64,000 nucleotides of DNA, from contig OY969695.1 in the NCBI GenBank assembly GCA_963701965.1, forward strand, positions 3,104,001 through 3,168,000, in the 5' to 3' direction. The stretch is from an uncultured Gemmatimonadales bacterium. Lineage in GTDB: Bacteria; Gemmatimonadota; Gemmatimonadetes; Gemmatimonadales; Gemmatimonadaceae. The translations under genes and the position numbers were made by a program. Positions 45,813 to 54,417 of this stretch are shown here, piece by piece (within the stretch, counting starts at the first letter, position 1; every line of letters starts with the position of its first letter). Below the pieces are notes generated by a model, which was given only the letters and a program-made list of their open reading frames with translations, made no database searches and had not been told where the DNA came from.

Positions 45813-48264
45813 ATGGAAGCCGCCATCCAGGAACTCCGATACGCCGCGCGCCGACTGGTGCGCACCCCCGCGTTCACACTGATCGCGCTCGCCACCGTGT
45901 CGCTCGCGATCGGCGCCAGCACCGCGGCGTTCAGCCTTGTGAACGGCGTGCTCCTCGAGCCCCTTGGCTTCGAGCGACCGAACCGACTCTTGTACCTGCA
46001 TGGGACGGATTCCCGCCAAGCGGCGCAGATGCTCTCGCCGCAGGATCTGATGGACTTCCGGAACCAAACGCACAGCTTCACAGCGGTCGTCGCGATCCAA
46101 AGTCCGCTGAGTCTCAACCTGCTTCGCACCCAAGGTCCCGCGCTCCGCGTCAACGCGGCTCGGGTGGGCGCCGACTTTTTTTCTACGCTGGGTACCCGCG
46201 CACAGGTCGGGCGAACGTTTGCGCCGGGCGAAGACGCGAGAACGGCGCCCAAGGTCGTCGTTCTGTCCGACGGCGCATGGAAACGCTATTTCTCGGCGAA
46301 TCCCAACATCGCGGGGACGCAGATTACGCTCGACGGCGACCCCTACGTCGTGGTTGGCGTGGCGCCTCCCCGGTTCACCTTCCCCGACAACGTCGAGCTC
46401 TGGTACCCCGCGGTCTGGGAACCCTGGGAGATCGGCGATATCGGCCGCGGCAATCATTCCGAAGCGGCGATCGCGCGGTTACGCAATGGCGTCACGCTCG
46501 CTAGCGCCCAGCGCGATCTGAGCACGGTCGCGAGTCGCATCGCCCAGGCGTTTCCGAAGGACGACGCGGGGATCGGCGTGGCGGCGGTTCCGCTGCGGCA
46601 ACAGATCGTGGGTGAGGTCGAGGCGCCGCTCTGGGCGATGCTGGGCGCAGTCATGTTCGTGCTCTTGATCGCCTGCGCCAACGTCGCGAACCTGTTGCTC
46701 GTTCGGGCGGCGTCACGGGTGTCCGAAGTGGCGGTGCGAACCGCCCTCGGCGCGGGGCGCCGGCAGATCGTCGCGCCATCACTGGCCGAGAGCGCGCTCA
46801 TCGTCTTGGGAGGAGCGGTGATCGGTACAGTGATCGCCGTGCTCGTGGTGCATGTGCTGGCGGGAGGCGGGATGGTTTCCCTGCCGCGCATGCAGGATGT
46901 CAGCGTCGATGGGCGCGTGCTCGCATTCTCGGCGGCGCTTGCCGTCGCCACCGCTCTTGCCGTCGGCCTCGTGCCGGCGCTCCAAGTTTCCCGCTGGGAC
47001 CTGTCGCCCTTGCTCCGCTCGGGGAGATTCGGAGGGGCCTCGGGAAGCACCCGCACTCGATCCGTTCTCGTCATGACGGAGCTCGCGCTGGGCACGGTGT
47101 TGCTCGTGGGAGCCGGCCTCCTGATCCGCAGCTTCCAGCGGCTTACTCACGTCGATCCGGGCTTCAGGGCAGATCATTCTCGTGGTGTTCGACGTCGCAC
47201 TGGCGACAAAAAAATACACATCCGACGCGCCGAAGATCGACTTCGCCGATCGTGTGCAAGCAGGGCTCGCGGCGTTGCCAGGTGTGCAGAGCGTGGCTGT
47301 GGCGGCCAACCGCCCGTTCGACCAGGAACAGTTTGGCCCTTCCACGTTGTTCATGGTCGATGGCGCACCGCCACCCATGCCGGGCGCGGAGCCAAAGTCC
47401 CGCCTCCATCCCGTCTCCCCCGCGTTCTTTCGCACCATAGGGATGACGCTGCTGCGCGGGCGCAGCTTTACGGAGGACGAGAACCGGTGGGACGCGGCCC
47501 CGGTGATCGTCATCAACCAAGCCCTGGCCGACCGATACTTCCCGGGGGAGGACCCGATCGGGAAGCACCTGACGTTCGCCTTTTGGCACGGTGGCTCCAC
47601 CGTGCCAGGAGACAGTGCGGTGCATCCGTACGGTGAGATCGTCGGTATCGTGCGCAATGCCTCTTACGGCTCGCTCAAGAGCAAACCCGAGCCCGCGACA
47701 TTCCTGCCGTACCGCCGGTTCCCGCTGGAAGCGACCTTTCTCCTTCGCACGGCGCTCCGACCCGCGGCACTGGAGCCAGAGATCCGGCGCGTCGTCGCAT
47801 TGGTCGATCCGTACGTGCCGACGTATGAACTGGGGAGCATGAACGCGGCGGTGGCCGAATCGGTGTCGCAGTCACGCTTCTACACGCTCTTGCTGACCGC
47901 GTTTGCCGCTATCGCGCTGCTGCTGGCCACGCTGGGCGTGTACGGGGTGGTGTCGTATGCGGTGAGTCAGCAGATGCGGGACTTCGGGATTCGCATCGCG
48001 CTCGGCGCGGCCTCGCGTGATGTCGTGAACCTCGTGCTCGGACGTGGGGCCTTGCTGATCCTGCCCGGCATCGCCTCGGGCCTTGTGGGCGCCCTGTTCC
48101 TCACGCGCGCGATCCACGGTCTGTTGTTCGGCATCGAGCCACTGGATCCGCCAACTCTCGTGCTGGTGTGCCTCGTGTTCGCCACCGTCGGGGCGATCGC
48201 GTGTTGGCTCCCCGCCCGTCGAGCGGCGCGGGTGGACCCGATTATCGCGATGCGCTCGGAGTGA
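45813..48264 (+). CDS. ADOP-type ABC permease (frameshift near 47180)
   Basis: [55 protein letters not shown]. Confidence 0.88.
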
Positions 48265-49377: not shown

Positions 49378-49800
49378 CTAATGTGGCATAGACCGTCGCG
49401 TCAGTACCCGGCCAAAATGCCCGCTCGTGTTCTCGTGTCGCGCGGACTGCCGGAACTGGCCGGGACTGGTGCCCACCTGACGTCCGAACACGCGGCAAAA
49501 GTGACTTTGGTCGAAAAAGCCGGCTTCCTGGGCGATCGCATCGAGCGATGACGTCGATTGCTGGAGCTGGACCATCGCCCATTCCACGCGCAGGCGTCGC
49601 TGGAACTCGCCGACGCTGCACGCCATCCTGGCGCGGAACACCCGCCACGTGCGCCGGGTGGACGCCCGCACTCGCGGCGAGATCGGACACGGTGAGTGGC
49701 TGGCGACACTCGTCGCGCAGACGGGTTACGATGGCGAAGCTCAGAGCCCAGGCTCCGTAATCCCTCGAACGCGGCACCGCCTCAGGTGCTCCCCGGCCCG
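49378..49800 (-). pseudogene. AraC-family regulator, truncated/frameshifted
   Basis: LTVSDLAASAGVHPAH then RVFRARM.CSVGEF...IAQEAGFFDQSHFCRVF in another frame. Confidence 0.7.
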
Positions 49801-49932
49801 TGGTGAAATCCATCAAGAAGCCGGACGGGCCCGCTGGCGGACGGTCTGAACGCCGCAACGCAGTACGTCGCGGTCCAATCTGTGCGCGTCCCCACATACA
49901 CGTGCGCGACGCATGCCTCAACAGAGGAGCAG

Positions 49933-50439
49933 ATGATGATCACCGTGAAATCGCTCGGCCTCACCGACGCGAACCTCGTGATTCAGGCGGGGATCGCCCG
50001 TGCCAACAAGATCGGCTCGCCGAGCACGATCGCCGTGGTCGATGTTGGGGGCACCGTCGTGGCGCAGGCCCGGATGGACGGCGCGTCGCTCTCGAGCGTC
50101 GCGCTGGCGTACGACAAAGCGTATACCAGCCTCTCGTGTCGGCTGCCGACGAGCACGATTACCAAGATCGCCCGGATCGACGCGGTCTCTCCCAAGTTTT
50201 ACTCAATGTGCTCGGGTGGTTCGGGCTTCAAGCGGGTGGGGTTGGGGATGAGAAAAAGCGCTGGTGGTGCTACTACTGGCGTGAGCTACCTCGTGACGTT
50301 GACCGACGTCACGGTAACCAGCATCACGCACAACTCGAACGGGACGGACGTGATTGTATTGAGCTTTGGCGAAATGACATCCAACGTGCCGGCCTCGGTT
50401 GCACTCTCAATGGCTAGCGCGACCGCTATGATCCGATGA
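49933..50439 (+). CDS. Chimeric protein: GlcG/HbpS N-terminal half fused to an Hcp-like core
   Basis: IAVVDVGG.VVAQARMDGA...AYDKAYTS (GlcG) then RIDAVSPKFYSMCSGG..FKRV.L.MRKS...YLVTLTDVTVTSI...IVLSF (Hcp); GAGGAG RBS. Confidence 0.65.
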   Translation: MMITVKSLGLTDANLVIQAGIARANKIGSPSTIAVVDVGGTVVAQARMDGASLSSVALAYDKAYTSLSCRLPTSTITKIARIDAVSPKFYSMCSGGSGFKRVGLGMRKSAGGATTGVSYLVTLTDVTVTSITHNSNGTDVIVLSFGEMTSNVPASVALSMASATAMIR

Positions 50440-51337
50440 ACGGTCGTACGGCGGCTATCAAAGCCGCCGGTTGCTCCTCGATGATCCAGTGTCCAGCATC
50501 GGGAATGACGGCGCTCTGGACACTCGTGAACGCTTCGCTCGCCACCACCGGCATCACCGTGCCATAGGAATGGTCGCCGCCGATCGCCAACACCGGCATC
50601 GGGAGCTTCCCCTTGGCGGCCAGCGCAGCCCGGTTGTCCTCCGCATCGTGCGGGAACGCCTTGAAGTTCTCGAAAGCATCATGCATGGCATTCGGCCGCG
50701 CGTAGATCGCCGCATAGTGCTGGCGGATGCCCTCGTTGATGCCGGAAGGGTTCGCCGACAGCTCGTTATAGAACCGATCGAGATAGATGCGCTCCCGGCC
50801 GGCGACCAGGCGCTCCTCGTCCTTTCCATAGAAGTAGAAGTGCCACGCCTTGACCGCGTGCGCGTACTCGTCCCACTTCCCGACGCCGGGAAGCGGCGCG
50901 TCGATGAGCACGAGTCGTGACATGCGCGGCGTGTGCCAGAGCGCGAACGCAAACGCGACCATGTTGCCAATATCATGCGCCACGAATTCGGCGCGATCGA
51001 CCTTGAGGGAGTCGAGCACACCGGCGATGTCCTGCGCCTGGTTCTTCTTGTCATACCCGCTCGCCGGATGGGACGAGAGGCCGAACCCGCGGAGATCGGG
51101 GACGATCACCATATGATCGCGCGCCAGATCGACGGCGAGGGGCTCCCACATGTCCCCGGTGTCACCAAACCCGTGCAACAGCACGACGGCCGGACCTTTC
51201 CCGCCATACCGGACATGAAGGACGGCGCCATTCGTGGCGATATCGCGAACACGAAACGACGTCGGAAACGGCGTGACTTGCGCGCGCGCCGCCGAGGCGG
51301 CGATCGCGACGACCGGGAGCCAACGGAGAAGAGACAT
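50426..51337 (-). CDS. Alpha/beta hydrolase (epoxide hydrolase/dehalogenase-like), secreted
   Basis: LLHGFG, PDLRGFG.S, AHDIG (Asp nucleophile), AGHWIIEEQP. Confidence 0.9.
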   Translation of the reverse strand: MSLLRWLPVVAIAASAARAQVTPFPTSFRVRDIATNGAVLHVRYGGKGPAVVLLHGFGDTGDMWEPLAVDLARDHMVIVPDLRGFGLSSHPASGYDKKNQAQDIAGVLDSLKVDRAEFVAHDIGNMVAFAFALWHTPRMSRLVLIDAPLPGVGKWDEYAHAVKAWHFYFYGKDEERLVAGRERIYLDRFYNELSANPSGINEGIRQHYAAIYARPNAMHDAFENFKAFPHDAEDNRAALAAKGKLPMPVLAIGGDHSYGTVMPVVASEAFTSVQSAVIPDAGHWIIEEQPAALIAAVRPFIGS

Positions 51338-51354: not shown

Positions 51355-51729
51355 CTATCGGCTCAGAGAATCAAGCACGGCCAGGAGACGTTTCCACGGC
51401 GTGGCGGCGACGTGCATGCCCATGAACGTCTCGGGTTCGATCTGTTCGCGCTGGACGGCGGCCACGGCTTCCATCGCGGTCGCGGGGAATGAGAGGCCGG
51501 TGGGATAGAGCTGGATGGCCTCGGCGGTGTAGACGAGGCGCCGGCCGGGGAGGTAGACCATGAGCATCCGATCCAGCTGATCGGTGTGCAGGGGCATGAG
51601 GTCAATGCGGTTGTCGCCCGTGCCGATCGACACGTGAGCCTTCACGGAATGGATGATCGGCGCGCGCGGTGCGCGAGCCAGGCTATCGCGCACCATTGTG
51701 TGCGGTGCGCGCAGGCGGTCTTGCAACAC
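51355..51729 (-). pseudogene. MBL-fold hydrolase C-terminal fragment
   Basis: RMLMVYLPGRRLVYTAE...FMGMH; no N-terminus. Confidence 0.45.
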
Positions 51730-51749
51730 GCGGACGTTGCGATCTAGGA

Positions 51750-52214
51750 TATGATGCGCGGTTCGCCGAGTCGTTGGCGAAGGCCAAGGCCGCCGTGCGC
51801 GGTCGAGCGAGTGGCGCGGGTACCGACTGGCCGACCCGATTGCTGGCCAATGCGGAGCACCGCCCGCCTGCCACGCCCAAGGTGGCCCGACTTCTGGTCA
51901 AGAGTGGCGGCCGTGTGCTCTTTGTCCGGGTCGACGACATCGATTGGATCGAGGCGGCCGACTATTACGTCAAGCTTCACGTGGGCAGCACGACCCACAT
52001 GTTGCGCGAATCCATGTCCGCGCTCGAATCCACCCTCGACCCGGCCATCTTCTTCCGCATCCATCGCTCGGCGATCGTCAACCTCGATCGGATCCAGGAG
52101 TTGCGGGACTACTCGCGGCGCGAGGATATCCTCGTGCTCCGCGATGGGACCCGATTGCGCCTGACCCGCGGCCGGCGTGCCAAGCTGACCGAACGCTTGG
52201 GGTACAGGCGGTAG
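51750..52214 (+). pseudogene. LytTR response regulator C-terminal fragment
   Basis: IDWIEAADYYVKLH...FFRIHRSAIVNL; receiver domain missing. Confidence 0.8.
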
Positions 52215-52272: not shown

Positions 52273-52632
52273 GTGGCGACAGCCGGATCCGAGTATACCG
52301 TCGATTTCCTCCCGTCCGTTGGCCCCAGCCTCACGGGCGTGTCGTTGGTGAGCGTCGCGATGCCTCCGTCGCCGTCGATACGATCCATGTCCATTACGAG
52401 GAAGGTCGACGCTGCCTCTCCAAAACTTTTCCAAATGTGCGTGGCCGGTGTGCACATCAAGCAGGCCACCATTACTTGCCGGAAGGCCGGCAAAGGGCAG
52501 CAAGAGTACATGATCGTGAAGCTGAACGACGTCGTGGTGACCAACGTTTCGCACAGCTCGACCGGAACGGATACGATCACGTTGAGCTTTTCCCAGATGA
52601 CGTCGAACGCCCCGCTGTCCGCGGCACTCTAG
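52273..52632 (+). CDS. hcp: Orphan short Hcp (T6SS tube)-like protein
   Basis: SITRKVDAASPKLFQMCVAGVHIKQATITCRKAGKGQQEYMIVKLNDVVVTNVS...ITLSF matches the Hcp core; GGAGG RBS before GTG. Confidence 0.75.
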   Translation: MATAGSEYTVDFLPSVGPSLTGVSLVSVAMPPSPSIRSMSITRKVDAASPKLFQMCVAGVHIKQATITCRKAGKGQQEYMIVKLNDVVVTNVSHSSTGTDTITLSFSQMTSNAPLSAAL

Positions 52633-52663: not shown

Positions 52664-53056
52664 ATGACGCTCGAGTGCATCAATTCCGCCGATCTGCCGA
52701 CCCCCACCACGTATACGCAGGTCGTCGTCGCGACGGGAAGCAAACTGGTATTCGTATCGGGTCAGGAGCCCGAAGACATACACGGCAAGCTCGTTGGCCC
52801 CGGAGATCTCGCGGCTCAGGCTCGCCAGGTATTTGGCAACCTCGGCCGTGCACTGGCTGCTGCCGGTGCCCGGCCTGATCAGGTCTGCACGATCACCATC
52901 TATGTCGTCAACTACGACCCTAGACCGATGCTTGGCGATTATCGAAGCAGCCCGGGTCGCGCTGTTCGGAGATCACAAGGCTGCCGACGTGGTGGTCGGC
53001 GTCGCAACGCTGTCCTCGGCTACCTGATCGAGGTCGACGCGATCGCCGTTGTTTGA
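52664..53056 (+). CDS. RidA-family protein (two compensating frameshifts near 52918 and 53010)
   Basis: YTQVVV..GSKLVFVSGQ, GDLAAQARQVFGNL, LIEVDAIAV. Confidence 0.8.
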   Translation: MTLECINSADLPTPTTYTQVVVATGSKLVFVSGQEPEDIHGKLVGPGDLAAQARQVFGNLGRALAAAGARPDQVCTITIYVVNYDPRPMLGDYRSSPGRAVRRSQGCRRGGRRRNAVLGYLIEVDAIAVV

Positions 53057-53456: not shown

Positions 53457-54417
53457 TCAAACCGTCCGGCGAATCTCTCTGATGCCAGCGTTGAGCTGGC
53501 GGCGCAAAAGGGCGCGCAGCGTGGCGCCATCGGCGTACCCGACGCGCGTGGCGATCTGATCCACGCTCAGCGGCGTCGTCTTGAGCAGGTGGACCGCGCG
53601 CTCGACGCGCAGACTTTGGAAGTATGAGAGCGGCGTCTTGCCGAGCACGCGCTCGAGTCGCCGGGCGAGCGTCCGCTTGCTGGCGCCCACGGCCTGCGCG
53701 GCATCGCTCAGCGAGAAGCCGCGAGTGAGCCGGCCCCGCGCCCAGTCCTCGAAGCGCTGCACGACGGGGTCCTCGTGGACGAGGTGATCCGCCAGCGCGT
53801 ACGCCGACTGCGATGCCCGGGGGTCGACGATCAGGTACCGGGCGGTGAGCGCCGCCAACTGCGGGCTCACGCGCCGGACGAGCCACAGCGCCAGATCCAT
53901 GTGGCTCAACGCCGCCCCGGCCGTGACGCAGCGGCCCGATCGCACGATCATCTGCGATTCGTCGAGGATCACGTGTGGATACCGCTGGCGGAAGAGCGGC
54001 GACAACCACCACGTCGTGGTCGCGCGTTGATGGTCGAGCACCCCTGACTCCGCCATCACGAACGTGCCGATGCACGCCGCCGCGAGCGTCGGTCCGCTCT
54101 TCGCCCACTGCTTGAGCGCCGCCGCGGCGTCCTGCGTGTCCGGCCGCGCCAGCGCGCGCTCCAGCGGGCCGGGCATTCTTGAAGCCAATCGCGGGGACGA
54201 CCACACAGTCCGGTGCTCTCGCCGCGATCGGGTGTACGGGCACACGCCAGCCCTGCGCGGTGCGCACGGCCCGCCGCACGCCCACGACGCGCACCGCGAA
54301 TCGCGGCACCGACATTTCCGTCATCTCGATCAACTCATTGGCCGTCTGCAGTGCATCGAGCACCGCCGACAGTCCCAGGTCAAACACTCCGTCCAGAGCG
54401 AGCACGTCGACGCGCAT
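53457..54417 (-). CDS. GlxA-family regulator (DJ-1/PfpI + AraC), frameshift near 54177
   Basis: AAACIGTFVMAESGVLD..RATTTWW, TAGAA, AraC HTH SVDQIATRVGYAD. Confidence 0.85.

Follow-up and report, generated by a model that had tools for sequence, protein, structure and literature searches.

The stretch analysed here, which we call the window, comprises 64,000 nucleotides of an uncultured Gemmatimonadales bacterium (assembly GCA_963701965.1, contig OY969695.1, positions 3,104,001 to 3,168,000). At 49933..50439 of the window there is a reading frame of 168 aa, stop-free throughout and with an AGGAG just 5' of it, that contains parts of two protein families. Residues 9-81 match the HbpS-like family PF03928 at 62.4 bits (cut-off 25; profile positions 2-74 of 128), and residues 74-149 match T6SS_HCP, PF05638, at 35.9 bits (cut-off 23.5; profile positions 51-126 of 129). 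A first-pass annotation of this DNA had proposed a split-domain profile search as a check, and the GlcG half and the Hcp half do each exceed the Pfam cut-off when scored separately. The two-domain frame is present in the assembly. The protein version from the second ATG, P0001, is the sole member of its cluster and comes from one contig, and no toxin family was matched in the chimera in Pfam. The features discussed below are as follows.

49378..49760 (upstream end approximate), reverse strand: remnant of an AraC helix-turn-helix, frameshifted near 49645
49828..49877, forward strand: shard of a RibD_C/DHFR-like gene, 50 bp from the gene's middle, just upstream of the chimera
49925..50173, forward strand: GlcG/DUF336-derived piece, comprising the ribosome-binding site and codons 1-80, recognized by DNA and protein identity to intact genes
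49933..50439, forward strand: chimeric reading frame, 168 aa
50173..50174, forward strand: junction, in codon 81
50174..50406, forward strand: drifting final two-thirds of a short gene of the Hcp family
50407..50439, forward strand: tail past the stop position of the paralogue, likely read-through, overlapping the end of a convergent hydrolase gene
51355..52214, both strands: second deletion junction, near 51750, where what is left of a gene of ~470-510 aa (its 3' end, reverse) and of a LytTR regulator gene (its 3' part, forward) stand back to back
52273..52632, forward strand: intact short Hcp paralogue (P0133), 119 aa

No sigma-70-like promoter was found on the forward strand within 49600-50600 and one was found on the reverse strand, a result that carries little weight either way. 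Structure prediction of the chimera with AlphaFold from the single sequence, without an alignment, gave a pLDDT of 31 and was uninformative about the fold, and the ESM Atlas, with no usable match, was equally so.

Several neighbours of the chimera are broken. The RibD_C/DHFR-like shard matches an intact PF01872 gene elsewhere in this genome (G000:C1:4259282-4260118) as well as G002:C26. The frameshifted AraC remnant is covered by an X1 sequence record (49544-49715) with 0 differences. At 51750 the histidine kinase and receiver domain are missing and each flanking gene has lost its 5' part, a deletion of about 2.6 kb by comparison with G002, G003 and G005. In those three genomes a gene of 472-508 aa is whole and is followed by the kinase and then by the full regulator, G003 having the same three-gene order; the gap between the two flanking matches is 147 bp in the window, versus 2655 in G005 and ~2840 in G002. 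The gap is also shorter in G001, where the deletion may be a different one. Further frameshifts are found near 47180 (in a gene that we take to be ABC-permease-like), near 52925 (a RidA-family gene) and near 54245 (a DJ-1/AraC regulator), the AraC remnant being the only one of these frameshifts covered by X1. When 178 reading frames of G003 were tried against this genome, 12 of the 117 orthologue-like genes proved to be broken, by 8 frameshifts and 4 in-frame stops, so that some of the frameshifts near the chimera may be consensus errors. Whether they reflect residual consensus errors or wide decay, these broken genes call for caution with other findings in this genome.

The GlcG front half and its ligand sites

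The front of the chimera is closely related to intact glcG genes. The piece shares 90.8% DNA identity with locus L042 over 249 bp, from 49925 to 50173, after which identity falls to background level, and 91.2% with locus L043 over 238 bp, again ending at 50173; most blastn alignments with GlcG loci (35 of 43) stop at 50171-50173. The break in the DNA thus falls at 50173/50174, inside the 50150-50180 interval suggested on first inspection. The first ~75 aa had been described as GlcG/HbpS-like, and the family was named correctly, but the GlcG part extends to residue 80. No convincing repeat is found at the join. Residues 2-80 are identical to both P0002 and P0003 at 77 of 79 positions, and this half has no private residue when compared with 113 homologue rows (the gap-free placements among 119 listed homologues). 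Its codon adaptation is 0.76. Where intact proteins continue from ITKIA into QPGG, the chimera continues into RIDAV. The nearest relatives of the front half, among the best 120 of 184 matches, are intact GlcG proteins, 138-151 aa long, whose match extends as far as residue 80 and which then run on through QPGG...GG.P...GAVGASG.

The chimera does not contain a whole GlcG domain, with its four strands and both terminal helices, as the GG.P and GAVGxSG segments are absent. In the fold as described in PMC4923194, four antiparallel strands lie between a terminal helix pair and three further helices. Mapped onto this description, the GlcG half would retain two of the four strands and would be without the C-terminal helix of the pair.

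Consideration of characterized relatives lends no support to the heme-binding function suggested by the family name. The best PDB match is EfgA (6bws) both for the front half (E 8.6e-7) and for the intact parent P0002 (E 1.6e-22). EfgA, a formaldehyde sensor, belongs to the same DUF336/GlcG family and has, according to its description (PMC8153426), a formaldehyde pocket of K57, S114 and D121 in a tetramer of whole domains. In a mapping by alignment, with a 20-residue tag offset taken from the chain length, K62 of the chimera corresponds to EfgA K57, and the equivalent of R42 is kept too. Unlike EfgA, the chimera has lost the entire back half of the domain, and with it the equivalents of S114 and D121, so that the lysine alone is retained from a pocket of which the intact parent has all three residues. 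The heme-binding PduO C-terminal domain and HbpS (PDB 5cx7 and 3fpv) are of the same family and give weaker matches over residues 7-82. His18 of PduO is essential for heme, as stated in PMC4923194. That column is occupied by Asn14 in the chimera, whose only histidine, residue 133, is outside the front half; a PduOC-type iron ligand is thus absent and the heme label is unsupported.

In both L042 and L043 the gene order is AraC, glcG, short-chain dehydrogenase (SDR). The glcG back half, that AraC and that SDR have no orthologue-level match in the chimera's own genome, which is a single contig. One member of the parent GlcG cluster carries the name of a Gemmatimonadaceae bacterium, and identities of up to 86-88% link further blocks of L042 to other places in this genome; on these sequence comparisons the GlcG piece is likely native to the lineage. 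As a separate observation, the LysR-like gene and its neighbour that precede the glcG operon in L042 (L042:3292-5102) are present in this genome at G000:C1:1778901-1780720 with 86% identity. A distance of 1.37 Mb separates them from the glcG piece, which is a sign that genes have been shuffled.

The Hcp back half and a family of short Hcp proteins

The intact paralogue at 52273, 1.8 kb from the chimera, is helpful in interpreting the back half. It scores 74.3 bits with PF05638, and its predicted model (pLDDT 63) matches solved Hcp structures in Foldseek. Together with P0125, P0235 and P0270-P0275 it forms a family of nine short Hcp proteins of 119-125 aa, which lack ~20 internal and ~15 C-terminal residues relative to ordinary Hcp and have an N-terminal motif of their own. 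With a profile built from three of the nine members, all nine score 141-219 bits, versus at most 79 for ordinary Hcp (46 matches among 450 candidates). The paralogue is a singleton cluster, and at E 1e-18 no short Hcp was found in 400 genomes of the family, while 49 of 401 genomes of the order gave only partial, lower matches. None of five stretches of viral contigs with P0125 was confirmed, and conservation in the nine-member alignment is nowhere sufficient for a locus scan. Full-length Hcp genes are also present in this genome, one adjoining VipB at G000:C1:4419253-4421005 and a second at 4757368-4757766 (near 4.42 and 4.76 Mb), both far from the chimera, and four of five same-genus genomes give 3-6 Hcp-family matches each (the tallies for same-genus genomes, for the 400 family genomes and for the 41 genomes mentioned below include G012 or G419, marked as unpublished, whose sequences underlie no claim made here).

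The back half of the chimera, at 50174..50406, matches P0125 at 52% and the 52273 paralogue at 47%. Taken over 111 columns, its identity to ORF 52273-52632 is 41%, and the DNA is 71% identical over 132 nt. The Hcp part begins at residue 43-44 of the short family, the first 42-43 residues being missing, and so starts after predicted strands 7-13 and 23-26 (the latter of low confidence) and most of 38-44. The whole Hcp fold, front strands included, is not present. Thus the switch without a stop noted in the first-pass annotation is real, but instead of a whole Hcp core it leads into the final two-thirds of a protein of the short Hcp subfamily. In common with the Hcp/TssD tube proteins, the back half exceeds the PF05638 cut-off and keeps the motif D-x-x-S-P...C...G...RK; it differs from them in being truncated at the front and in lying ~1.27 Mb from the genome's VipB-Hcp locus. 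There was no match to TIGR03344 at E 0.01.

This half is drifting. Four of 15 invariant positions are altered in the chimera, versus 0-1 in each of nine intact members left out in turn, in a test set of nine sequences of which several are closely alike. The Hcp part has a codon adaptation of 0.44, which places it between the 1st and 5th percentile among 600 segments of the genome, and the value for the paralogue is 0.57. The frame nevertheless stays open for 88 codons beyond the junction. The TAG of the paralogue aligns with TCA in the chimera, which continues ten residues further, while members of the short family end 0-2 residues after the paralogue's stop position.

Searches for a second fusion, and the origin of this one

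No independent occurrence of the same junction turned up in any search run. In a search of 5.8 billion proteins that left out the "longer" length class (184 matches from 361 candidates), PF05638 was found among the best 120 only in the chimera itself, and a search with region 81-168 matched one of 12 candidates, again the chimera. HMMER, with no length limit, gave 1053 matches among 1.84 billion representatives; the best 150 include three that match the Hcp part but no protein that matches both parts. Among 327 fetched proteins, 280 match the GlcG profile and 47 the Hcp profile, both being matched only in the chimera. In addition, 49 GlcG loci (310,738 bases) contain no Hcp match, and 8 of 41 genomes match, with both halves covered only in the chimera's own genome. 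A set of 185,579 species genomes, which may not include the chimera's own, has no match to the junction pattern and, in a protein scan, a single locus that matches GlcG in part. The first-pass annotation had named the lack of the fusion in any other genome as a ground for refuting its proposal, and every search run had this outcome, although the absence of a second copy is itself weak evidence, as the lineage is thinly sampled and the intact paralogue, too, is a singleton absent from the 400 family genomes.

A literature search judged by titles and the beginnings of abstracts found nothing relevant on an Hcp-HbpS fusion. The known Hcp-ET proteins likewise join an Hcp sequence to another domain in one chain; as set out in PMC6730261, they carry a toxin domain C-terminal to a whole Hcp, with adjacent immunity genes. 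The chimera differs from this description in having a non-toxin half-domain ahead of a truncated Hcp. A further parallel is the metagenomic one-off P0225, a single-member cluster in which GlcG breaks off before its end and a portion of an unrelated gene follows, with another partner (ADH_N) and another cut point. The searches also returned P0218, a protein of 1238 aa with eight HbpS-like repeats.

We consider it quite probable that the chimera is a recent in-frame deletion, or illegitimate-recombination accident, with a product that is likely functionless. Both halves are missing essential parts, no second copy was found and neighbouring genes are broken; together these point to a recent accident and not to a new protein. 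The 77 of 79 identities and the lack of private residues in the GlcG half suggest that little time has passed since the join. The existence of one-off half-GlcG chimeras with other partners, such as P0225, is also in favour of this reading. In the order of events that we suppose, a second copy of the short Hcp gene would already have been drifting before the join; a deletion would then have taken the rest of a glcG operon, organized as AraC-glcG-SDR in the relatives, together with the front of the drifting Hcp copy, and the frames would have matched by chance, at about one in three. If it is translated from the inherited ribosome site, the product would consist of two half-folds without either ligand site, and it would likely be misfolded and degraded. 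Some observations count against an accident: drift has not closed the frame, the ribosome site and the start are undamaged, codon adaptation is low in the paralogue as well, and continued selection would explain the unchanged sequence of the GlcG half no less well than recency.

An assembler might instead have misjoined halves from different molecules or strains, which we judge unlikely. X1, which may be the source sample, covers the area near the junction sparsely, at 49916-50066 only, and among the records listed none bridges 50173; the 4.2% contamination of the assembly and the 8 frameshifts and 4 in-frame stops among 117 genes would also be in keeping with such an error. On the other hand, the X1 records listed (8 of 16, of low depth) agree with the assembly with 0 differences, the AraC frameshift included, there is no repeat at the junction, and the single contig does not carry the other halves of the two genes at another place. 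Logan lists the exact 167-aa sequence in addition to NCBI and ENA, suggesting that a separate read assembly contains it, probably from the same sample; three sequencing runs, all of one study, are listed, with no RNA run among them. Less credible is that this is an ordinary GlcG gene with a chance resemblance to Hcp, or that a glcG piece was inserted into a complete short Hcp gene, a pair of explanations that we regard as extremely unlikely. The Hcp match exceeds the Pfam cut-off on its own and the DNA is 71% identical to the paralogue. Insertion was suggested by an in-frame "AATQY" stretch upstream of the chimera, which in an anchored profile test, designed after the stretch had been seen, was equalled by 9-28 of 1200 random segments. 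That stretch proved to be the RibD shard, its DNA match to the paralogue's front is not above chance (1021 of 3000), and we have withdrawn this candidate.

The first-pass annotation had left a choice between a recombination accident, now supported, and a selected fusion coupling a heme/redox half-domain to an Hcp scaffold. The latter fares poorly in its heme/redox form, given the Asn14, the histidine-free front half, a parent nearest to EfgA and the loss of two of three pocket residues. In a broader form, the GlcG hairpin and helices would stand in for the missing front strands of Hcp, and the resulting folded protein would link an Hcp scaffold with a small-molecule or oligomer surface. The open frame, intact ribosome site and unchanged GlcG half are compatible with this, strands are predicted both in the lost Hcp part and in the kept GlcG part, and poor sampling could hide other copies. 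Even so, we think it very unlikely: no search run found a second copy, the equivalents of S114 and D121 and the heme histidine are absent, the Hcp part has lost invariant residues, deletions abound in the region, and the Hcp fusions described in PMC6730261 carry their extra domain after a whole Hcp. Highly improbable, in our view, is that we are seeing a new gene at birth, in which the GlcG hairpin and helices would complete the truncated Hcp barrel and the expressed hybrid would join or cap assemblies that the intact short Hcp would form, and link these with a DUF336 oligomer surface.

If the chimera is an accident, it has little weight of its own, beyond illustrating that two above-cut-off Pfam matches in one frame can be the debris of a deletion-prone region. 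As a fusion that had been kept, it would offer a rare natural example of two half-folds that complete one another, and a first link between DUF336 sensors and Hcp. More promise lies in a by-product, the family of nine short Hcp proteins, of which the member in this organism is encoded far from a secretion-system locus.
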